Below are positions 16,331-39,400 of a DNA stretch of 64,000 bases, piece by piece. Below the pieces are notes generated by a model. That model did not search any database. It was not told where the DNA came from and saw only the letters and a program-made list of their open reading frames with translations. Location: NCBI GenBank assembly GCA_031282835.1, contig JAITCU010000026.1, positions 23-64,022 on the forward strand, read 5' to 3'. The DNA is from Puniceicoccales bacterium. GTDB lineage: Bacteria > Verrucomicrobiota > Verrucomicrobiia > Opitutales > JAIRLM01. Every line of letters begins with the position of its first letter. Positions within the stretch are counted from its first letter, which is position 1. Both the position numbers and the translations under genes were made by a program.

Positions 16331-17125
16331 TCAAGCAGTGTCTCCATTTTCTTTGGACAACAACGCTGCATAAATTTTCCGGCAACCTTCCGCCGTCGCT
16401 ACGAGGTCACCACACGGACCCTTCACTTTGTCCCTATAAAACTTGAGTTTCTGCGCGTGCTCCACACGGGCGTACACATCTTGTTTGTATTGTGGAAAAC
16501 ATTCGGAAATGAACTTTTCTAAGTTATTTATCAACTTTTCCAGAAAGAGACCCTTCGCATCGTAATCCTCATCTTCAAGTGCAGAAAAGGTCGCTACGCA
16601 ATCATCCACTTCATCGCACACGGCCATAAGCCCCAACTCGGCCTTTTGGCGTGCTACAAAACCCGGAAAATCTTGACGATCCGCTTCAATCGCATGGAAG
16701 CGCGCAGCAACATTATACAATTCTCGTTCCAGTTTCAAGCGCTCTATTCCAGTTGAAGATTTGGGCGAGGCCTTGTCAGCCTCGAGGATTCTCTTGTCAA
16801 GAGCTTTCGTATACTCAACAAGACCATTCTGCCGGGAGCGTCTTTGCCAGGCGGCCCACCCTCCAGTGCCGCCAGCAACCAAGGCCACGGCTGTGCCACA
16901 AATTACCAGCAAAATTGCAATCCGAAGAAGGGACGTGAAAAGCAAAATCACCACGCCCACGCATAAGACGGATACTCCCGAACCTGTGCACATCTTCCAA
17001 AAGGCGTGAAGGATAGGATGAGTAAGAATTTGTTGCAAAAATGATTCCTCAGCACGCACGGACAATCCCGCAAAATTAGGCGACATGGAGTATTGAGAGC
17101 TCTGAACTTGTAATTCACCTGACAT
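16331..17125 (-). CDS. Orphan protein with ~45-aa bilobed hydrophobic domain (Inc-like topology)
   Basis: VSVLCVGVVILLFTSLLRIAILLVICGTAVALVAGG followed by a helical domain; ATG 17125 lies 39 nt after TTGACA. Confidence 0.8.
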   Translation of the reverse strand: MSGELQVQSSQYSMSPNFAGLSVRAEESFLQQILTHPILHAFWKMCTGSGVSVLCVGVVILLFTSLLRIAILLVICGTAVALVAGGTGGWAAWQRRSRQNGLVEYTKALDKRILEADKASPKSSTGIERLKLERELYNVAARFHAIEADRQDFPGFVARQKAELGLMAVCDEVDDCVATFSALEDEDYDAKGLFLEKLINNLEKFISECFPQYKQDVYARVEHAQKLKFYRDKVKGPCGDLVATAEGCRKIYAALLSKENGDTA

Positions 17126-17404
17126 AGCGAGCTTGTGTCTCGCCCGTAAGTGTGGGGATGTCAAGTCAGCAATTTCGTTTCCACTAAAGTTGCAAAAAGA
17201 ACGCCAACAACAGATTTGTTTGGGAAATGGCCGCACGTGCGGTTGGCAAGCTCGCCCGATTAATAGAGGTCTTGCAGAAGTCGCTTTTGGCCATTTTGCC
17301 CCGCATGAAATGCGGGTTTTAAGACAGTGTTTCCAACTTTTGAGGGATCTCCAATAGGTCCGACGCGGTGAAGTGCACTAAAATTCATGGGCCAATTTTG
17401 CGGT

Positions 17405-17713: not shown

Positions 17714-18748
17714 ATGTCGAAGATTATATCTCAAACCTTTTCGGGTTCAGTTGGCGGGTCCCGCTTGGATATACCCCATCCTTCGGAGCCCACGAAAGTT
17801 GTTGAAACAGTTTCTTTGTCCATGCCTATAGATGTTTGGCGCCAAATTCAATGTTTCTTATGCCTTATTCTCCCGCGCGACTTTTGCGTATGGTTGATGT
17901 CCAAAATACGTAACAACTACAGCGGGCAAGACTTTCACCGGCCGCCAAGTGGGGATCGTACAACGGAGATTGAGGCGCTTCCCGCGGGAACTTTGGTTGC
18001 GCATCCGTCGCAGGAGACCCCGCAAGGAGAGTGCGACGTCACGGATATTGCGGTGGCGGCAACCCCCGGGGAGGGCCCTCCCGAAAACCATGAGTTTCAC
18101 ATCGAATTGCAGTACCCGCAAAAATGTGTTTCCCATGCGCCGACTACTCGCGGCGAGTGTTGCGTCGTTCCGTACTTCAGACTCGGAGATTATATGAGTC
18201 TTGGACTGGTGTCGTGTATTATGCCGAGGGGTGATGGTACCATAATGGTGACGCATGAAGGTTGCATGCTTCTGCATGAATTTGTGGAGAGTCTTTACGG
18301 TACTACTCGGTTGGTGGTAGCTAAGGCATACGAGGGTGTCACACAAATGGTGGTTGGCATGGGTGATCTTGCGAAGCGGCAATGGATTATGTTGCTCACG
18401 GTGGCTTTGTGTAAGGCAAATGGTAAACACGAAAATGACATGGCGAAAGATCGGCAACTCCAGGAGGAGATTGGCATCCTGCTTGACTTGTCGCGGCGGT
18501 ACAAAACCCCAACAGAGGTAAGAAATGATGCTGAGATTGCAAGAGCGTTGGCGGAGGTCGAGGAAGCAAATGCTAGGTATGCGGCGGCACATAAGCTGGT
18601 CGTCGATGCGACAACTAGTTGCGAGGCTGATATGGCCCGCACACGGAGGGAGCGGGAAGCGGCCGATGTGGAACTGAAGTTAAGACTCGAAAAGATGCAT
18701 GACGGTTTCTTTGTCATGCTTGGGAAACGCCTCTTTAGAAGCGGTTGA
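17714..18748 (+). CDS. Orphan 344-aa protein with C-terminal coiled coil
   Basis: TTGACA(17679)-N16-CAGACT-N7-ATG; Ser/Pro-rich N-terminus followed by a hydrophobic patch. Confidence 0.8.
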   Translation: MSKIISQTFSGSVGGSRLDIPHPSEPTKVVETVSLSMPIDVWRQIQCFLCLILPRDFCVWLMSKIRNNYSGQDFHRPPSGDRTTEIEALPAGTLVAHPSQETPQGECDVTDIAVAATPGEGPPENHEFHIELQYPQKCVSHAPTTRGECCVVPYFRLGDYMSLGLVSCIMPRGDGTIMVTHEGCMLLHEFVESLYGTTRLVVAKAYEGVTQMVVGMGDLAKRQWIMLLTVALCKANGKHENDMAKDRQLQEEIGILLDLSRRYKTPTEVRNDAEIARALAEVEEANARYAAAHKLVVDATTSCEADMARTRREREAADVELKLRLEKMHDGFFVMLGKRLFRSG

Positions 18749-19265: not shown

Positions 19266-19343
19266 TCGGCCACCGGGCCGCGGGCAATCATGCGTGCGGC
19301 GTTGACAGCCGGACGATTGGCAACAGCATATGAACGGAAATTG

Positions 19344-20906
19344 ATGGATACGGCAAACGAGATCATAGAGAGAATTCGGAAAGAAATCGCGGCCCTGCAG
19401 CCGTCCACCGTCCACGAAAATTTTGGACACGTGCTTTCCATCGGTGATGGCGTCGCGTTTGCCAGTGGACTTTCACAGGTAAAACTCAACGAAAAGGTAC
19501 AGTTTGCCGATGGCTCATTGGGCCTGGCGCTTAACTTGGCCGAGGACTGCGTTGGCATCGTGGTGCTTTCCGATGGGGCAAAGATTAACGCCGGGGATGA
19601 GGTAAAGACCACCGGCGAACTCCTTTCCGTTCCCGTCGGCAAGGAGCTCCTGGGCCGGGTGGTTAATGGACTGGGCGAGCCCATCGACGGCCACGGACCC
19701 GTGGGGACTACGGCCCACTATCCCGTGGAAAAAATTGCTCCGGGAATTCTCCCCCGCCAATCGGTGAGCCAGCCGCTGCAAACGGGAGTCATTGCCATCG
19801 ACTCCATGATCCCCATCGGCCGTGGGCAACGGGAACTCATCATCGGCGACCGGGCCACGGGAAAAACTTCCATCGCCATCGACGCAATTTTGAACCAGGC
19901 GAAAATCAACCACCAGGGGGAAGCGTCCGGGGATCCAAATTTTCGCCCCGTCTATTCCATCTACGTTGCCATTGGCCAGCGCCGATCCGCCGTCGCCCGG
20001 ACCATCCAACTGCTCGAATCCCACGGGGCGCTTTCCTACACCATCGTCCTAGCCGAAGGGGCATCCAATAATCCCGTGGGCCAGTACATCGCCCCCTATG
20101 CGGGAGCGGCCATGGGCGAGTGGTTCATGGATAACGGCATGGATGCGCTCATCGTCTACGACGATTTATCCAAACATGCCGTCGCCTACCGGCAAATTTC
20201 ACTCGTCCTCAAACGCCCAGCCGGCAGGCAGGCCTACCCCGGAGATATCTTTTACCTGCACTCCCGCCTTTTGGAGCGGGCGGCGCGGCTCACCAAGGAA
20301 AACGGTGGCGGATCCCTAACAGCTCTCCCCATCGTTGAAACGCAGGAGGGGGACGTCTCCGCATACATTCCCACCAACATCATATCCATCACCGATGGAC
20401 AAATTTATCTGGACACGGACCTCTTCAATCGCGGCGTCCGCCCCGCCGTCGCCACCGGCATTTCCGTTTCCCGCGTGGGATCGGCCGCCCAGGTGAAGGC
20501 CTTTAAGCAAGTGGCCGGGAAAGTGAAGTTGGACCTGGGTCAGTATTATGAATTGATGGCATTTGCGCAATTTGGTTCCGAGTTGGACGAGCGCACGCAG
20601 CAGCAATTAGACCGCGGTGCCCGCATCGTGGAACTTTTTAAGCAGCCGCGGCTCGCTCCGAAACCCATGGAAATGCAGGTTTTTCTCCTTTGGGCAGTGC
20701 AAAACGGATTTTTGGACAAAATTCCAGTCAACAAAACAAAAGCGGCAGTAGACGACCTGGAACAATGGGCTCAATCGGCACAATTGCATCTCTTGGAAGA
20801 CATTGCCACTAAAAAGGAAATCGACGGCGATATCTGTGAACGGCTCCATCGGGCATTAGAATCCTGGCAGGCGGCACAAGCCGAGGACGTGCAGGCAAGC
20901 GCGTGA
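19344..20906 (+). CDS. atpA: F1Fo ATP synthase subunit alpha
   Basis: [39 protein letters not shown]. Confidence 0.98.
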
Positions 20907-20912
20907 GGAACA

Positions 20913-21809
20913 ATGAAAAGCTTTAAGGAAATTAAACAGCGGTTGCGGGCCGTACGGAACACTGCGAAAATCACCCGCGCCATGCAGCTGGTCGCATCCT
21001 CGAAGATGCACCGGGCGCAGCAATTGGCCATTGGTGGACGTTCCTATTCGTTGCGCCTGGCCGAACTTGCCAACCGGCTTTTGGCGGAATTCGCCCAAAA
21101 TCGCCGGAAGAAATTTTCCCATCCGCTTTTGGAAGAACGCGAAATCCACTTCCGGGGCGTTATTCTGGTAAGTACCAACAAGGGCCTTTGTGGATCGTTG
21201 AATCAAAACCTCTTTCGCACGCTACCGCCAGCAGGTGACGCCGTAAAGTACATTGCCGTGGGAAAGAAAGGAAAGCAGTTCCTGGCATCGCGGCAACTGC
21301 CCCTACTTGCGGAATTTTCGCTCACCGACAACGTCCCCTTCCATGAAGTCCGCAATATCGCCAACTTTGCCCAAAATGCCTATTTAAATGGTGAGATCGA
21401 CAGCATCGAGGTAATCTCCACCGTATATGTCAACACCCTGTGCCAAAAGCCAATATTGCAAGCGCTTTTACCATTGAAGTTGTCGCCGGATGGCGCGGAA
21501 CAACAACGAAAAGTCCTTCGCCGGGAACGGGATGTGATGCCGGTGGATCCGCGAGGTTTAATCATCGAACCCTCGCCAGACGCGGTCATGCGGGCATTGG
21601 TGGAAAGCTTTTTGCGCGAGACCCTCTACCATCTGTTGCTGGAAGCGAAAGCCGCGGAGCAAAGCGCCCGGGTTGTAGCCATGAAAACGGCAACGGACAA
21701 CGCCGAATCCATCGCCAAGACTCTCAATTTGGAGTACAACAAAGCCCGGCAAACGTCCATTACCAATGAAATCATCGAAATTTCCAGCGCCTCCGTCGCT
21801 GCCCAGTGA
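20913..21809 (+). CDS. atpG: F1Fo ATP synthase subunit gamma
   Basis: KITRAMQLVASSK, KGLCG, YNKARQTSITNEIIEI. Confidence 0.97.
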   Translation: MKSFKEIKQRLRAVRNTAKITRAMQLVASSKMHRAQQLAIGGRSYSLRLAELANRLLAEFAQNRRKKFSHPLLEEREIHFRGVILVSTNKGLCGSLNQNLFRTLPPAGDAVKYIAVGKKGKQFLASRQLPLLAEFSLTDNVPFHEVRNIANFAQNAYLNGEIDSIEVISTVYVNTLCQKPILQALLPLKLSPDGAEQQRKVLRRERDVMPVDPRGLIIEPSPDAVMRALVESFLRETLYHLLLEAKAAEQSARVVAMKTATDNAESIAKTLNLEYNKARQTSITNEIIEISSASVAAQ

Positions 21810-21863
21810 CCACGGTACATTCCACTTGAGAAAGCAGAGAAATTTTAACCCAATGGATTGAGT

Positions 21864-23207
21864 ATGTTCGAGAAACTTTCAGAAAAGCTGCAGGGGGCCG
21901 TGCGTACCTTGCGCGGGCTCAATCATATCACAGAGCGCAATATTAAAGACGTGCTGGCAGAAGTCCGGGACGCACTTCTGGATGCGGACGTCTCTTTTGA
22001 CGTTATCAAATCGTTTTTGGAGACAATTCGCGAGAAGTCCATGGGGGAAAAGGTCCTCAAGTCCATCGCCCCTGGACAACAACTCATTAAAATCATCAAC
22101 GACTCTATCACCGAACTCTTCAGTCACACGCAAAAATTTTCCGAGGAAAAGCCTCTGCGCGTGCTCATGGTCGGACTTCACGGATCTGGCAAAACCACAT
22201 CTACCATTAAGCTCGCTTACCACTTGCGAAATAGGGGCTATCACCCTGCGGTGGCAACCTGTGACGTATATCGGCCAGCGGCCATTGACCAATTGGAGCA
22301 GTTGGCAAATGGGGAAGGTATCGCGGTTTACAGCGATCGGAATGAAAAGAAGCCCGTAACCATTGCCAAGGACGTCCTGGAGAAAATGAAAGGGGATGCC
22401 TTCATTTTTGACACCGCAGGGCGTTTGCAAATTGCTGAAGATTTAATCGCTGAATTGAAGGAACTTAAAAAGGCGGTGCAGCCACAGGAAATCCTCCTCA
22501 TCGTTGATAGTGCCCTCGGCCAGGAAGCCGTCTCCGTGGCTAAAACTTTCCACGAAGCGGTCGGACTCACGGGGATTTTTTTAACCAAATTGGATGGCGA
22601 CACGCGCGGAGGAGCGGCGTTGTCCATGAAATATGCCACTGGTGTACCCATCCAATTCATTGGGACTGGCGAGCACGTGACCGACATGGACGCCTTCCGA
22701 GCGGAGGGAATGGCCCAGCGCATCCTGGGCATGGGCGATGTGGTATCCCTGGTGGAGCGGGCCAAAGAGCGCGTGGACAAAGAGGAGGCGGATCGGCTGG
22801 CCAAGCGCTTCCGGAAGGCGGAGTTCGACTTTGAGGACTATCTTTCACACATTGAACAAATTGAAAAAATGGGATCCATGGCCTCGCTCATGCAGCTTCT
22901 CCCCGGCACCAGCGGCCAAACCATATCCCCACGGGAACTCTCCCAGGTCGAACAAACGAAGGCCATCATTCGCGCCATGACGCTTCAGGAGCGGCGCAAA
23001 CCGTCCCTCATCTCCGGCGGGCGCAAACTCCGCATTGCTAAGGGCTCTGGGGTGCAACTGAAGGATGTCAACCACCTGTTAAAGCAGTTTGAAATGGTCA
23101 AGAAATCGATGAAGAAAATGAAAACCCCGCAGGGGCAGAAGGCAACCCAGCGCATGTCCGGCGCCGGCGCGGTACAACAGATCGCAAAATTATTTGGCGA
23201 TAAATGA
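21864..23207 (+). CDS. ffh: Signal recognition particle protein
   Basis: GLHGSGKTT, DTAGR, TKLDGDTRGGAALS, RILGMGD and an M domain. Confidence 0.97.
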   Translation: MFEKLSEKLQGAVRTLRGLNHITERNIKDVLAEVRDALLDADVSFDVIKSFLETIREKSMGEKVLKSIAPGQQLIKIINDSITELFSHTQKFSEEKPLRVLMVGLHGSGKTTSTIKLAYHLRNRGYHPAVATCDVYRPAAIDQLEQLANGEGIAVYSDRNEKKPVTIAKDVLEKMKGDAFIFDTAGRLQIAEDLIAELKELKKAVQPQEILLIVDSALGQEAVSVAKTFHEAVGLTGIFLTKLDGDTRGGAALSMKYATGVPIQFIGTGEHVTDMDAFRAEGMAQRILGMGDVVSLVERAKERVDKEEADRLAKRFRKAEFDFEDYLSHIEQIEKMGSMASLMQLLPGTSGQTISPRELSQVEQTKAIIRAMTLQERRKPSLISGGRKLRIAKGSGVQLKDVNHLLKQFEMVKKSMKKMKTPQGQKATQRMSGAGAVQQIAKLFGDK

Positions 23208-26200
23208 ATCTTGCAACAAAAATTTTACACACATGCCCATTGACAATTTGCCTGCGTTTAATGGGATCCTCGACGAACTGTATGTTATCAACTTTGCGTA
23301 GCAACGATAAGCTGCCACCGCTGACTCCCAAAATGTCGGTTGCTGCATTGATATCGGATAAATGGACCATTGATGTGTCCCCGACTGATCTGAGCAATAC
23401 CCAGGGTTGCGTATCTGTTTGTATGATTGGCCTACTAAACAACCGTTCTCTTTGGAATTTTTTTAATGTTATCCGCTGCACCGTTGATAGTTATCCAGAT
23501 GGTGTGTACCTTATTATTAATCCGCCCCTGCTTGACAGCCTTTTTGCCGGGATTGCTGCACTCAATTGCCTAACTGAAGGTCAGTGTTTTCCGCCGACAC
23601 AAAGAGGTGGTTTCGGCGATTCACCACTGTGCCATTTTCACCCAACTGATAATCCCAGCATTTTCAAGTATTCCAGGGAAGTTAATGGAGATCTTTGTAA
23701 GAAATTTTCTATGCCGGATTGTGGCGATTGCAACGTGATGGGAAAAAGGTGGGATATCTACCGATCGTCTGATGTACTTTTCGTGAGGAGAATCGGCAGC
23801 ATTGATTATGAATATGCTCAAAAACTTGTTGAAGCCGTGCGATCAGGTCATCCTATTCGCGTGTTTGCGGTGAAAAGCAGAACTCTGGGCGTTGAGGCTT
23901 TAGAATGCGCTTTTCGGAGGGCATATGCATATGTAAACGAACGCGCTAATTTGCTTATCCCAAGAAACCAAGAGATGCGCGCTGGTTATTATTTTCTTAC
24001 ACAATGGCTCCACCGTGTTTTGCAATCGGAGCATCGTATGGAAAACAGCTTCCAAGGCAGCAATGAGAAATGCTTTATTTATTGTGGTTTGGATGTCCCG
24101 GTTGACATCCCCCCGCCACCAATTGGAACAAAAAGTGATTTGGGTGGTCAATTTGCTACACCTGACGAAAAGGAATTCGGCTTGCCAACATTCGACAGAA
24201 CCGTCGGCTGCGAATCCGCGGGAGAGTGGGAGTTTTCGTACGATGGTGAAACACTTACGGTAACGGCATTTGGCAATATTCGCTGGGAAAATGTGCAAAG
24301 GCTAGCTCTTGAGCTTCAGTTGGTTCAGGGTGAAATTGTGATTAGGATACCAGCCAATATCGAGGCAAGAATTTTGGCTGCGCAATTCCGGGCCGCATAT
24401 GAATACATGCTCACAGAGTCCGATTTAAGTGTTTCGCGGAATGAACAAATGCTTATTGGCTTTTGCCTGCTAGCCAATTTCTTTGGGCGAGTTGCCGATA
24501 TTTGTGTTTATGAGGAGGTTACGCAGGGGGACATGGTATGGCATGTCTTCAAGGGAACATTTCCTGAATTTAATGTTCCAGCGGCCAGTCTTGTGGCCAC
24601 AAGTAGGAGTCAGCGAGTAAACAGCGCGCTTGTGGATGCCTTCATTGAGGCATTTCCCGAGAGTCTTGAGATCACCAATCCAATTCTCCGGGATATGCAA
24701 GGCTTCAGGGAACGATTTCGCGTATTTGCAAACAAGCATGGCGATATCCTTCCGCATGAAGTTGTCAGTGAGATCCTAAGGTGCCCATTGGATAGTCATG
24801 AGCTTATTGAGTTTTTTGAATGTTGCATATTCCGAGAACTAACCCCCCCTTTAGCGCCGTGGAGTGGCATTGACATTATCGTGTTATATGACAAGTTTCG
24901 CACAGTTTTGGGCATTTCCGATGAAACAATGCCCATAACTGGGAGCGTGCACACTCGCGGCTGGACGGCCAGCGATTTTTGGCACACAGTGGCTTGCTGC
25001 GCCGTCGAATTGGACCCGAGAATTGTCAACATTATCGCGGTCAGCATTTTTAGACAATGGTGGACCGGCGTCATCTTGCGGAATTTTCTTGGATCATTAA
25101 GAATTTTTGCCGATCAGATTTGCACCATGTCCAAGGCCCAGATTGCCAAAGGTGTTTCTTTTAGATCATCAGCACACTGTGACATATTGCCCGTGCTGAT
25201 CGACACGTTTTTGAAAATCGGTCTGGAAATTGACGAGCCTGAGATCGCTCAGTCTGTTGCGGAAATTTTAAATAGCAACCTTCCGCCTGTGGATTTACAC
25301 ATCGCCATCGCCAGATACACTGCGGAGCAATTATCCAAACTAGCCGTGCCAATCGTTTGCAAGCCTTCGAGCGAACCAGCGATGGAGCCAAAATCATTTG
25401 CGCCAGAAACTACTCCAGAGTTGCTGCTCGAAGCGGCTACTACCGGTTCATCGCCTGAGCCAGTTACCAGTGAGCCGTCAACAGATCCTGCAGACAAATT
25501 TGGGTCGCCCGAATCGGGTGCTCCAGTTTATTCGGTTGAACTGGATTCGTCTCCCCAAAGGCTTTCACTACTTGTGCCTGATTCCTTGCGTAAATATTTC
25601 ACGTCGCAGGGGTGGGGGATCGTACATACGCGGGGCGATGGCAACTGTGCATTGAACGCAATTGCAGTTTCGTGTGCACTGAGTCTCTATACCAGCAGGG
25701 CCTTTCGGCGGGAATTGTGGTTTATTATTTTGGGGCTTCGCGGCCTCACACGATTTTCATCAATTTCGGATAGTTTGGCCGGCGCTAAGGTGGTGCCGTT
25801 TCCCGTCATCAAAATTTCCATTAAGGCTTTGCGCGTAAATGATACGAGAAATAATGAATTCGTTGTCAGAGTACTTATTAGGCACTGCCTTGAAATGATC
25901 CCTGAGGATTGGGCACTTTTCGGAGCGGATCGTCAAAGTCTCAAAGCACTCCTGTCAGAACTCCAGCAGATACCTGCACTATCCACGGTATTTACGGAAC
26001 TCCAACAAAGCGAAGCTTTCACGAACTTCTTCTCGTCAAATCCTACCCACCCAAATAATCCCTTAAAAGCGAGGGAAGATTTTATCCGTGCTCTTTTCGA
26101 CGAATTGCAATTTTTGGCACAATTTTACCTTCGCGACATATTGAGTACCGCCCCCCTGGGGGACAATGTGCCAGATTGTTTCCACCTGTTCCTTGAGCGA

Positions 26201-26503
26201 GAAGCCACTATCGCTGCTTATCGACAGAACATCACAGGTGTGACCGGTAGATTTTGCGGGTTTTTGGATATGGGATTTGCGTCTGTTATTCTGCGTATCC
26301 CGGTTGTTGTAGTAACGGACAAGTATGCAATTGGTTTTTCAATTGTCGGAGAGGTCTTCACTGTCGACCTTCACAACTTGCCAGCTGGATCAATTGTTTT
26401 ATGGTACAACGGCCATGAGCACTTTGAGGTTTTCTCCAGAGAACCTCTCATCGACAAAATGTGGCTTGTTAAGGATAGCCCCGATGGAGAAAGTCCTTCA
26501 TAG
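23204..26503 (+). CDS. Orphan 1099-aa protein with internal repeats and a C-terminal OTU-like cysteine protease domain
   Basis: TRGDGNCALNAI (Cys codon 25646) and LWYNGHEHFE (His codon 26420); start may be 23282. Confidence 0.8.
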   Translation: MNLATKILHTCPLTICLRLMGSSTNCMLSTLRSNDKLPPLTPKMSVAALISDKWTIDVSPTDLSNTQGCVSVCMIGLLNNRSLWNFFNVIRCTVDSYPDGVYLIINPPLLDSLFAGIAALNCLTEGQCFPPTQRGGFGDSPLCHFHPTDNPSIFKYSREVNGDLCKKFSMPDCGDCNVMGKRWDIYRSSDVLFVRRIGSIDYEYAQKLVEAVRSGHPIRVFAVKSRTLGVEALECAFRRAYAYVNERANLLIPRNQEMRAGYYFLTQWLHRVLQSEHRMENSFQGSNEKCFIYCGLDVPVDIPPPPIGTKSDLGGQFATPDEKEFGLPTFDRTVGCESAGEWEFSYDGETLTVTAFGNIRWENVQRLALELQLVQGEIVIRIPANIEARILAAQFRAAYEYMLTESDLSVSRNEQMLIGFCLLANFFGRVADICVYEEVTQGDMVWHVFKGTFPEFNVPAASLVATSRSQRVNSALVDAFIEAFPESLEITNPILRDMQGFRERFRVFANKHGDILPHEVVSEILRCPLDSHELIEFFECCIFRELTPPLAPWSGIDIIVLYDKFRTVLGISDETMPITGSVHTRGWTASDFWHTVACCAVELDPRIVNIIAVSIFRQWWTGVILRNFLGSLRIFADQICTMSKAQIAKGVSFRSSAHCDILPVLIDTFLKIGLEIDEPEIAQSVAEILNSNLPPVDLHIAIARYTAEQLSKLAVPIVCKPSSEPAMEPKSFAPETTPELLLEAATTGSSPEPVTSEPSTDPADKFGSPESGAPVYSVELDSSPQRLSLLVPDSLRKYFTSQGWGIVHTRGDGNCALNAIAVSCALSLYTSRAFRRELWFIILGLRGLTRFSSISDSLAGAKVVPFPVIKISIKALRVNDTRNNEFVVRVLIRHCLEMIPEDWALFGADRQSLKALLSELQQIPALSTVFTELQQSEAFTNFFSSNPTHPNNPLKAREDFIRALFDELQFLAQFYLRDILSTAPLGDNVPDCFHLFLEREATIAAYRQNITGVTGRFCGFLDMGFASVILRIPVVVVTDKYAIGFSIVGEVFTVDLHNLPAGSIVLWYNGHEHFEVFSREPLIDKMWLVKDSPDGESPS

Positions 26504-36411: not shown

Positions 36412-39400
36412 CTAAGCTACCGGTTCGGGTGCACTAGATGCGGATGTGCCAAGCATAGACTCGATGGCTTCATGCGTTTTTTCAACCACAGCAATATATG
36501 TATCAAGGGAGCCACCTGCCGCTTTGCGTCCATCTTCATAGTACGAGGCAAGAGCGCCAACGTCCAGTTTAAGGGGTAGTACCGCGACAGCACCCGGCTG
36601 TGCATCCGGCTTGAGTACACATGAATCATTCGGTTGGGCAGTGCTATCAACGTTTCCGCCGGGATTCAGTGGAAGAGCGGGGTCGGGGTCGGGGTCGGGG
36701 ATACGCGCAGTGGCTTGTTGGCAAAGTGCAAGTACGGTAGCACGGTCTGGATTCTTCAGGTTAGCGATCTGCATCTTTATGTGCTCCATTTGGGCCTCGA
36801 ACCTAAATGGGAATTTCAAAAGTTTATCGAATTCCGAATCTTCGCTCCGAAATATTAACGGAAATCCGGCCAAAAGATACACAAACACCCATGCGAGAAT
36901 TGCCTTTACCTTTCTCGCAGTTGTCAACGATGCCTTCACTCGGGCAAATGATTCATCATATCCCCTAATCTCCTCCAAAAAAGACGCATACCTCTGGTCG
37001 AAAAGTTGTTTGATAACCACATCCACCCATTGTTTGATCTGGGCTAATTGGGCGGGTGAACATTTTTGTTGGACGCTCGCATTAGCCTGCAGCAGGGCGT
37101 TGCCTACGGCTTCTTGAAGAGTTCCCGCAGAACAATTTAGCATGCGGTCCTTGCTCAAATTGTCTCGAAATATAGCGGCCATAGTTCTCTGAAACATATC
37201 CTGGGCACACTGCCGATCAGATGGACTCAAATTTATATCATCCGTTTCCCAAAAGCCGAATAAACGTACCGCCTCTGACACAGTATCAGATATCTGCTTA
37301 CAGAACACCGCTAGAGTAGCTTCCACTCGCCCGTCCGCTGCCGTTTGGAGGGCTTCAAGTGGGCTCGTACCCTCAAAATCCTGTTTGCTGAATGCCAAAA
37401 ACGCCACCGCGGCTTTCTCTATACATTCACCGAGTCCAGGATGATATTCTTTATCAGTAATGCAGCAAATCATATCATACATAATGAGCCGTTCCGGAGA
37501 TAATCCAGCCAGGTCAATATGGCTTAGGAACTCCATGCATATTTGCACAAAAAGATCGACCGGCAGATCATTTAATACATTCCCTGTCATTTGTTGAACG
37601 ACTTCTTCCGTCAGCCCATCCCTTCGTTGTGATAAAAAGAGGGCAACAGCAGAAGAGTTCCACGGCTGCTCCAAAGTCTTAGGTACTAACTGTGACAATG
37701 GGAACATCGAGGCCGACACTGTTCCTTTACGACTCCCAGTTCCCCCATTCTTTGTAAAAAGCTTGGCAATGGCAGCTTTCTCGTCCTCGTCCAACGGTAG
37801 GAGGCCCGCTTGCCTTCTTCGGTCGCTCTCTGTTTCGCATAAAAGCACGAAAGCTGTTACTGTGGGACCCGTAAATTCGTTTGGATGAGCCGGATCCATA
37901 AATCTCCGAAGCCATTCCACTGGTATATCACTATATCTCCCAAGCAACAACAAAGCTTCATAAATTTCTTCCCCATGTTCTGGTAAGGCATCTTTATTCC
38001 CGACCAATACGCCTCCATTTGGCGTAAAAAGCACCGGCTTTCCGGGCGCCCAAAGATTCGCATTTGCAATGTATCGGTTCGCCTCGAAACCATCGACAAT
38101 GAAGGTTTTGCCATGCTGCGGATCTACCATGATGAAGAACTCGCCACCCAACTCGTGAAATGGCCATCCAATCTGCGAATCCTCAGTCAGGCAGGCCAAA
38201 TTCTTAGTTAGGTACAGTCTTGAAAAAAGCGTACCAGGATTTGGATACTTCTCATCTTGGGTCCGCCATCCGCGGAACATGCTCGCGTCGACTTTAATCG
38301 CATATTCAGACGGAACTCCTTCCATCAGGTTCAACTCATCTTTTACGCGCGGGTTACTTGACGGAAAGGTGGTGGTCGTCGTAGTCAAAGTGCATTGAAC
38401 ATTCAACGAGCATTCTTGCTGGTTTTCAAGTTCGAACTGAACAGTTTTTTGTACAATTGTTTCCACCTGCTGCTCGAGCGTTGAACCGCCACTTCCGCCC
38501 ATGGCCGAGGAACGGTACATGAAACCCTTAAGACGCTTCCCTATATCTTCTAAGAATAAAGGCAATTCGCCTTTGGGCGCGTTTAAGGCAGTAAACGCCC
38601 CTCTTATTTTTGCGAAAGCGGGACAGTTTTGGTATTTGTCGAGAACATCTAAAAATTTAGATGTATACATCCTCGCTTGCCTCTGAATAATTTCGACTCC
38701 AGGTACCATCGATTGGCGGCGCGCACAGGAGGAAATTACATCAAGATCCACATTTTTCACAAAAAAATCACAAAATGCGCTCAGAACAAGTTTCGCATCC
38801 GAAAAGCTAAGATTGGCAATTGCATCTACAAGGATTGATTTAAACATGTAGTGCAGTTCGTTAAGGGCTGCTTGGAGTATCAAGGTTTTATTATTTTCTC
38901 CTTCATTTTGCGCTAGTAATGCAAGAAGTTGAACCAGTTGCTCTTGCGTCGGAAGATCTTTTAGCCCCTCAGTCCGTGGGCATTCTGCAACTGCTATACA
39001 TATTTGCTGCCCAGTAAAATACTGGCGAAGACGCATTATCGCCTGCGCCCACTCTTCTGGTGTGTTTGTATTTGGATTTGCGGTCATAATCCCATAAGCA
39101 TTGGCCGCAAATTGAGCATCCGTTCCTGTCGCAAGTCGCTCGGAAAAAAATGCCGCACACTCGTCGGGATTGAGGCCCGCCTTTCGTAAATCAGCGGACG
39201 TAACGCCAGTGAGATGTTTGTTGTTCTTCCCGTCACCGCGGATGTCATAGGCAATGAAGTTCCCACCCGAATCTTCGCAGACAATCCACTCAACACCAGC
39301 ATTATTGTCAATTAACTCCTGCCCAAATTGGACCAAAATATCATGGAGACTTTTTACTTTAAATAGCCCACCTCTATCCACGAGAAGACGAACCTGGGAA

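Follow-up and report, generated by a model that had tools for sequence, protein, structure and literature searches.

A predicted OTU-fold cysteine protease with an enlarged helical lobe, and its fast-evolving family, in a genome-reduced Puniceicoccales bacterium

We analysed a stretch of 64,000 nucleotides (nt) from the Puniceicoccales bacterium assembly GCA_031282835.1, contig JAITCU010000026.1 (hereafter the window; positions are window positions unless a contig is named). It contains an open reading frame (ORF) for a protein of 1099 amino acids (aa), whose C-terminal ~300 residues are, on the evidence of a predicted structure, probably an OTU-fold, papain-like cysteine protease that would be secreted and would strip host ubiquitin. 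From the predicted fold and the genome context, a secreted deubiquitinase is the best reading of this gene. The original prediction had pointed to an OTU deubiquitinase-like domain on the basis of two short peptides, one with a presumed catalytic Cys and the other with a His, 258 codons apart. Both peptides were found in frame within this single ORF, the first at residues 803–820 (nt 25610–25663) and the second at residues 1064–1075 (nt 26393–26428). The distance proved exact when counted from Cys815 to His1073 (258 residues; 256 to His1071), and the interval assigned to the domain, 25600–26440, falls within the borders that we obtained (Table 1).

The fold was predicted with AlphaFold2 from residues 792–1099 and a 17-row family alignment. 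The domain model had a mean predicted local distance difference test score (pLDDT) of 80 and a predicted template modelling score of 0.82; in blocks of ten residues, the pLDDT was 84–94 in the core (model residues 1–60 and 221–300) and 56–91 in the middle. In this model Cys815 (model residue 24) stands at the N-terminus of a helix (24–36) and His1073 (model residue 282) directly ahead of a strand (283–287), with further helices and then five strands between them. Asp812, three residues ahead of Cys815, and Glu1075, two residues past His1073, are retained together with the Cys and the His at the aligned catalytic positions. The Cys box, D812-G-N-C815 at the start of the helix, aligns with the D-G-N-C of solved OTUs, and the His box, H1073-F-E1075 at the start of the strand, corresponds to H-W-D/N/Q in the paralogs; the third residue of an OTU His box is acidic or polar and has a role of its own. 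Between the two boxes, paralogs and solved OTUs have a G-x-W-G-E motif whose Trp is aligned with Phe1017; this Trp is the conserved variable-loop residue that in wMelOTU is described as holding the Gly-Gly motif (PMC7396840).

Two independent structural comparisons placed this model among the OTU proteases. In a Foldseek search against the PDB every listed row was an OTU-family protein: Otubain-2 and Otubain-1 came first (E = 1.6e-4), followed by OTULIN/FAM105, viral OTUs, OTUD3 and LotC, with template modelling scores (TM-scores) of 0.23–0.50, which are low because the helical lobe fails to superpose. A VIA-align pass over 48,161 representative chains, run independently of Foldseek, returned OTU-fold proteases at all of ranks 1–32 (Z = 14.4 to 6.0), and rank 33 was an unrelated helical protein with Z = 4.9. 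The top match was wMelOTU of Wolbachia (Z = 14.4, 152 aligned residues, root-mean-square deviation (rmsd) 3.4), followed by OTUD3 (13.4), yeast Otu2 (13.2), OTUB1 (12.3), nairovirus OTUs (about 12) and SnOTU of Simkania (11.3), whereas LotC and LotB (both 8.7), the LotA domains (7.9 and 7.7) and a tymovirus protease (6.0) formed the low end of the OTU range. Because of the gap in Z and the coverage of model residues 1–300, the OTU assignment is secure for a predicted model. The structure prediction and Foldseek search proposed along with the original prediction thus returned an OTU fold and not some other one, and the OTU-like domain was upheld by both comparisons, with the catalytic residues in place.

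At the level of sequence, the link to known OTUs emerged from the family as a whole. A word-indexed protein search with residues 780–1099 found only the query itself among 3,314 candidates, and phmmer over 1.84 billion cluster representatives (E <= 0.001) gave three proteins: the query; P0003, of 919 aa (E = 2.8e-12), from a genome of the same genus (G001); and P0004, of 885 aa (E = 3.7e-9), a paralog encoded in the same genome as the window, on contig C46 upstream of atpD. Searches of a 5.8-billion-protein set with two broader family profiles (A3, built from 12 rows, and A4, from 17 rows; a third, A2, had 3 rows), in which 8,000 candidates were scored each, returned only the query, P0005 and P0006, the latter two being members of the same family. 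The 1099-aa protein, P0003 and P0004 align from end to end at about 25% identity, and in this alignment Asp812, Cys815, Y1006, T1011, G1015, D1022 and His1073 are invariant, as are D573, T575, G586, I610, I611, F616, W620, T621 and R626 in the middle region of the full-length proteins. After His1073 come an aromatic and then an acidic residue (H-F-E in the 1099-aa protein, H-W-D in the two paralogs), and it is this His, not His1071, that we take as the conserved one, since it is invariant across both paralogs. The order of parts, namely the Cys box, a central Y..T..G-x-[WF] with a helix and a strand, and the H-[WF]-[DE] box, is the same in both paralogs. Given this shared order, the profile matches and the predicted fold, the pairing of the Cys and His motifs goes beyond chance.

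The A4 profile was compared with 177,635 distinct PDB sequences and matched 35 of them at E <= 10; all ten matches at E <= 0.01 were OTU domains. A nairovirus OTU (5.1e-5) and OTUD5 (1.5e-4) headed the list, then came OTUD1, OTUD3, yeast Otu1, more viral OTUs and EschOTU, and the alignments laid the Cys box of the family onto the D-G-N-C of these proteins and its G-x-W-G-E, helix and strand block onto theirs. The Pfam OTU model (PF02338, gathering cut-off 23.3 bits) had no match in the 1099-aa protein at E <= 10 and stayed below its cut-off in the paralogs (13.2–22.2 bits, highest in the paralog G001:C12 at 22.2), where the partial matches agree in the order of parts: P0003 matched with its Cys box (model positions 1–18), the ortholog of P0004 in genome G002 with its central motif (61–90), and the C32 paralog over positions 1–96. 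One relative, G007:C41, reached the cut-off at exactly 23.3 bits. Falling below this cut-off, the 1099-aa protein is to be called an OTU-fold protein only, and not a member of PF02338 by score.

The long stretch between Cys and His, which had been taken for an insertion, is in the model a helical lobe of enlarged size that separates the Cys helix from the variable loop: Cys815 and the invariant Gly1015 lie 200 residues apart, all of them helical, a length of the kind known from Lot enzymes. In Shin et al. 2020, the helical lobe is given as 50–60 aa in typical OTUs, 110–120 aa in Otubains, and 183 aa in LotB, 210 aa in LotC and 179 and 178 aa in the two LotA domains, and the Lot lobe was shown to contact ubiquitin (PMC7690952). 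Set against these figures, the earlier statement that OTU spacing is normally 100–120 aa holds for minimal OTUs and fails in general, while the long lobes ascribed to the Legionella Lot OTUs (178–210 aa) agree with the published values. The spacing is indeed long when compared with minimal OTUs; within its own family it is not extreme, because 258 residues lie in the middle of a range of 172–402.

We then compared the domain with the known groups of OTUs. With the Lot class (LotA, LotB/Ceg23, LotC/Lem27, Lpg2529; 7uyg, 7f9x, 6ks5, 7bu0, 6yk8) it shares the length and position of the lobe, and the Lot enzymes are likewise multi-domain proteins, effectors of an intracellular bacterium. However, Lot chains reached a VIA-align Z of only 6.9–8.7, as against 10.4–14.4 for twenty classical OTU entries; a sequence relationship was undetectable, with no Lot protein among the A4 matches at E <= 10; and Lot enzymes use a type IV system, whereas this genome has an injectisome and no VirB4 match. 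The catalytic core was matched best by the structures of classical minimal OTUs (wMelOTU, 6w9o/6w9r; OTUD3/OTUD1; yeast Otu2; nairovirus OTUs), with Z = 12–14.4, 130–152 aligned residues, an rmsd of 2.6–3.4 and the same sequence order of Cys box, variable-loop aromatic residue and His box. In contrast to the ~300 residues found here, their domains comprise 141–186 residues, identity is 12–20%, and they have neither the ~200-aa helical lobe nor the ~790-aa N-terminal region. Otubains (OTUB1/OTUB2) and OTULIN/FAM105 were the top Foldseek matches (E = 1.6e-4 to 3.5e-3; TM-scores 0.32–0.50) and gave the longest VIA-align alignments (159–171 residues), although their Z of 10.4–12.3 was below that of minimal OTUs; Otubains do have an enlarged helical lobe, of 110–120 aa (PMC7690952), but they are eukaryotic and have no similar N-terminal region, and the 1099-aa protein had no match to Peptidase_C65 (PF10275). 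SnOTU of Simkania (8cmr), like further OTUs from chlamydia-like and rickettsial bacteria, is the OTU of an obligate intracellular bacterium and aligned over 153 residues with Z = 11.3, but at 16% identity, from another phylum and with unrelated accessory domains. Judged from the model, the domain would work like a Lot-type OTU, yet its core is nearer to the classical OTUs, and we do not place it in the Lot class. With a lobe of Lot-like length on such a core, it could represent the new OTU subclass suggested originally.

In order to describe the distribution of the family, we examined 41 genomes of the order, 14 of them (0.7–1.4 Mb, the window's own included) from the same taxonomic family and 27 from as many other families. 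Since the genomes are 64–94% complete, counts that rest on absence are lower bounds. The A2 profile matched in 6 of the 41 genomes, its own included, that is in 5 of the 13 other genomes of the taxonomic family and in 0 of the 27 from other families. The A3 profile matched in 9 of the 14 (8 of 13 without its own), with several copies per genome and at least six different ORFs in G001, and the Pfam OTU model at E <= 0.01 matched in the own genome and 4 of the 13, again in none of the 27, with one of the 41 genomes over the cut-off. Across 401 genomes of the phylum, the A4 profile matched in two, the own genome and one weak match (E = 1.6e-4). Within the own genome, the A4 hidden Markov model found exactly three of the 4,660 ORFs of at least 80 aa: this gene (on contig C44) and those on C46 and C32. 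The weak match just mentioned concerns the OTU Cys-box region and lies in a genome of the same class that consists of a single 0.9-Mb contig (G151:C1, 880782–880967), in a 67-aa frame with two stops; this may be a remnant or chance.

The family is also variable in itself. Over its 17 aligned domains, the distance from the Cys to the variable-loop Gly ranges from 85 to 280 residues and that from the Cys to the His from 172 to 402. Both catalytic residues are kept in 14 of the 17 members; the three others (G001:C5, G001:C14 and G011:C21) retain the central motif and are candidate pseudo-deubiquitinases. In a maximum-likelihood tree, the 1099-aa protein falls into a seven-member clade (support 85/90) with P0003, P0004, the G002 ortholog, two dead paralogs and G011:C21. 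As far as sequences can tell, the family appears lineage-restricted and fast-evolving and seems to include catalytically dead members. In paralogs from other genera (G010, G012, G013, G011 and G009), a long hydrophobic N-terminal stretch was seen ahead of a very long lobe, with a Cys–His spacing of 333–402. The hydrophobic stretch is possibly a hairpin of two membrane segments, which suggests membrane-anchored versions among these paralogs.

We also examined the genome for signs of its way of life. The assembly has 1,042,913 bp in 48 contigs and is 88.8% complete. It encodes a TLC-family ATP/ADP translocase (E = 2.7e-177; C3 1045–2508, −), for which 0 of 14 control genomes gave a match. The translocase was present in 13 of the 13 other genomes of the taxonomic family and in 7 of the 27 from other families, where six matches were strong (E <= 1.6e-169, genomes of 0.8–1.8 Mb) and the seventh was weak and partial (E = 3.1e-12, a 3.6-Mb genome); across the order it tracks small genomes. 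A type III export gate, SctV (FHIPEP; E = 6.8e-228), lies on contig C12, and because genes of the YscX and TyeA families flank it, we assign it to an injectisome rather than a flagellum. With two secretins also found, the genome has the kind of injectisome that a type III effector calls for. TyeA was found in 11 of the 13 and 7 of the 27 genomes, respectively, while in the 88.8%-complete own genome flagellin, VirB4 and TssC were not found. The injectisome cluster on C12 (9519–13397, −) adjoins a 1392-aa ORF with no Pfam match.

Life in or on a eukaryotic cell, as originally proposed, is independently supported by the 1.04-Mb assembly, the TLC translocase, the injectisome-type type III secretion system (T3SS) and the label, termite gut, of the one sequencing run that holds the gene. 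Williams et al. 2021 describe a 'Nucleococcus cluster' of Verrucomicrobia living as endosymbionts in the nucleus or cytoplasm of flagellates and ciliates of the termite gut, and mention an unpublished genome of ~1 Mbp for Ca. Nucleococcus (PMC8204192). By comparison with these, we infer that the genome may belong to this cluster; the organism is probably intracellular, and a gut flagellate is its most plausible host.

These observations can be put together in a mechanism. The organism would be a genome-reduced, energy-parasitic Puniceicoccales bacterium (Verrucomicrobiota) of the termite gut, and the protein would be exported into the host, probably via the injectisome T3SS, where it would remove ubiquitin marks. 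With its Cys–His pair the enzyme would cut behind the Gly-Gly tail of ubiquitin, or of a ubiquitin-like modifier, by hydrolysing an isopeptide or peptide bond; the enlarged lobe might supply an S1 ubiquitin-binding surface that sets substrate or linkage preference, as in Legionella LotB and LotC, and the N-terminal and middle domains may target the enzyme within the host cell. A wider scenario, which we offer tentatively and regard as doubtful, is that genome-reduced verrucomicrobial endosymbionts of eukaryotes in the termite gut have undergone an OTU radiation of their own, in which the lobe was repeatedly remodelled (85–280 aa), independently reaching and exceeding a Lot-type lobe, and paralogs died, the lobe serving as a fast-evolving specificity module, directed at host ubiquitin signals, of proteins delivered by type III secretion. 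The phylum would be one for which the literature searched yielded no enzyme of this type. The copy numbers to be considered here are at least three in the own genome and at least six matched ORFs in the congener G001.

Several observations weigh against a secreted deubiquitinase. As a single sequence, the 1099-aa protein matched no family of Pfam or NCBIfam at E <= 10, and phmmer against the PDB gave three chance-level matches, none of them an OTU (best E = 0.11). Confidence in the model is lowest in the helical lobe, where pLDDT blocks fall to 56, and the variable loop is degenerate, with Phe for Trp and C-G for G-E. In the tree the 1099-aa protein has a long branch, of 1.33 changes per column, and no close ortholog, and 3 of the 17 family domains have lost the catalytic Cys, the His or both. 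Peptidase_C48 (the CE-clan protease) and ankyrin repeats, which would have been additional signs of interference with ubiquitin or the host, were not found in the 88.8%-complete genome, and the sole public run holding the gene, labelled termite gut metagenome, may be the assembly's own source.

Some of these observations lend themselves to other explanations. A fortuitous pairing of the two motifs in a differently folded protein would fit a single sequence without a significant database match; it is contradicted by the A4 matches to OTU domains, the fold search and the conservation of the motifs across paralogs, and we regard its probability as next to negligible. The domain might also be a pseudo-enzyme or binding module, in which the OTU fold is kept as a scaffold that binds ubiquitin or other proteins without catalysis. 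Loss of activity does occur in the family, as the three catalytically dead domains attest, and it is the degenerate Phe-for-Trp loop, the long branch and the grouping of dead paralogs in the clade of the 1099-aa protein that keep this explanation alive. On the other hand, Asp812, Cys815, His1073 and Glu1075 are all kept here, while the pseudo-enzyme paralogs show how fast catalytic residues are lost once they are not needed, and we hold a non-catalytic role to be unlikely.

If the protease is active, its substrate could still be something other than ubiquitin: a host ubiquitin-like modifier (NEDD8, SUMO or another) or some other suitably tailed host protein. Among the top structural matches are the nairovirus OTUs, solved with ISG15 besides ubiquitin, and the part expected to choose the substrate is the enlarged and poorly conserved lobe. 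But most depositor titles of the solved matches name no ligand, and the others give ubiquitin or, with some viral OTUs, ISG15; the sequence gives no pointer to a different modifier, and we rate such a substrate as unlikely. A role within or between bacteria, with no eukaryotic target, might for example lie in inter-bacterial conflict, or in a large protein, secreted or on the surface, that processes itself. OTU-like peptidases do occur in bacterial polymorphic toxin systems, seven ORFs of ~2,900–4,130 aa in this genome might need processing, and the secretion and host target of the 1099-aa protein are predictions. It is nevertheless very unlikely in our view: PADLOC gave no match for any of the three paralogs, the gene is alone between housekeeping genes and not beside a toxin or giant gene, and members of the family occur only in small, translocase-bearing genomes, most of them with the T3SS marker, and were not found in the 27 genomes from other families of the order, which are mostly larger.

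With a secreted deubiquitinase retained as the best reading, the locus is not a new kind of enzyme, and its activity is predicted. The bacteria known to have OTU deubiquitinases are a small set of intracellular ones, namely Legionella, Chlamydia-like organisms, Wolbachia and Rickettsia. The locus extends this list to Verrucomicrobiota, with an OTU family that is a sequence orphan, escapes current Pfam and NCBIfam models and is linked to a lineage showing signs of an obligate intracellular existence (small genome size, the ATP/ADP translocase and the injectisome). What is already known is the class of enzyme and the logic of the effector; the family, the host lineage, the architecture and the range of lobe sizes have no description in the literature searched. 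In a partial literature search, no report of OTU proteases in these bacteria turned up, and a 2026 review, as far as its accessible sections go, mentions Verrucomicrobia only for a HECT-like ligase. The series of lobe sizes, together with the dead paralogs, is a natural series bearing on how the lobe might set ubiquitin-chain specificity, and the family provides a molecular handle on the dealings of uncultured termite-gut symbionts with the host ubiquitin system.

Table 1. The ORF of the 1099-aa protein and its parts, in window positions
Feature	Position	Strand	Basis or remark
Whole ORF	23204..26503	+	1099 aa plus stop
N-terminal 'head', aa 44–170	23333..23713	+	Alignments; common to paralogs P0003, P0004 and P0005
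Sub-module copy 1, aa 176–272	23729..24019	+	Extra copy peculiar to this protein; insert relative to paralogs
Sub-module copy 2, aa 336–430	24209..24493	+	Aligns with the single sub-module of the paralogs
Conserved middle motif region, aa 570–630	24911..25093	+	Three-protein alignment
Pro/Ser/Glu-rich linker, aa 720–785	25361..25558	+	Precedes the protease domain; P, S or E at 33 of its 66 positions
Predicted OTU-fold cysteine protease domain, aa 795–1091	25586..26476	+	AlphaFold2 model, Foldseek, VIA-align, family profile against PDB sequences
Cys box D-G-N-C	25637..25648	+	Asp812 at 25637–25639; putative catalytic Cys815 at 25646–25648
Enlarged helical lobe, aa 828–1010	25685..26233	+	Model helices 45–59 to 212–220
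Variable-loop motif G1015-R-F1017-C-G-F-L-D1022	26246..26269	+	Alignment with paralogs and solved OTUs
His box H1073-F1074-E1075	26420..26428	+	Placement of the His in the domain model

Upstream of the protease domain, an internal duplication links residues 176–272 with residues 336–430 (BLASTP E = 8e-10, 29% identity over 101 aa), and the duplicated module is present once in the paralogs. For the N-terminal domain (aa 44–309), AlphaFold2 produced a weak model from a 5-row alignment (pLDDT 67.6, predicted template modelling score 0.53), whose closest structural match reached Z = 5.5 (91 aligned residues) and whose matches formed no coherent family; we leave the fold unassigned, which does not mark it as new. 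An ESM Atlas search with residues 44–790 gave no usable match.

The gene sits between atpA-atpG-ffh and sfsA-yajC-secDF. Its ATG at 23204 shares bases with the stop codon of ffh; besides this M1, M27 (23282), which is the start in the database gene call, and M44 (23333) are candidate starts, and similarity to the paralogs begins near M44. G001, a genome of the same genus with an Ffh of 88% identity, has the ffh and sfsA frames directly side by side, while in G003, also of the same genus (contig C14, 11641–13191, −), the slot after ffh is occupied by an unrelated 516-aa ORF with hydrophobic stretches. Because the ffh–sfsA site varies in this way, we regard the gene as accessory. Its GC content is 0.48–0.50, against 0.511 for the genome, and its base composition shows no sign of a recent foreign origin. 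A scan for promoters and terminators around the gene did no better than shuffles (6 promoter-like signals against 5.1 expected, 8 terminator-like against 4.8), and there was no RNA run among the listed public runs holding the gene.

Further observations concern the neighbourhood and the genome at large. The F-type ATP synthase genes are split, with atpA and atpG followed by ffh in the window (19290–23207) and atpD on contig C46; there, atpD lies directly downstream of the OTU paralog P0004, and the ortholog of P0004 in G002 also adjoins atpD. Two other ORFs of the window, 16331–17236 (−, 301 aa) and 17714–18748 (+, 344 aa), had no Pfam family at E <= 1e-5. A 4112-aa ORF at 36412–48750 (−) had one Pfam match, which was sub-threshold (DUF3638, 20.1 bits against a cut-off of 31), and the ORFs of ~2,900–4,130 aa mentioned above make up an unusual share of so small a genome.

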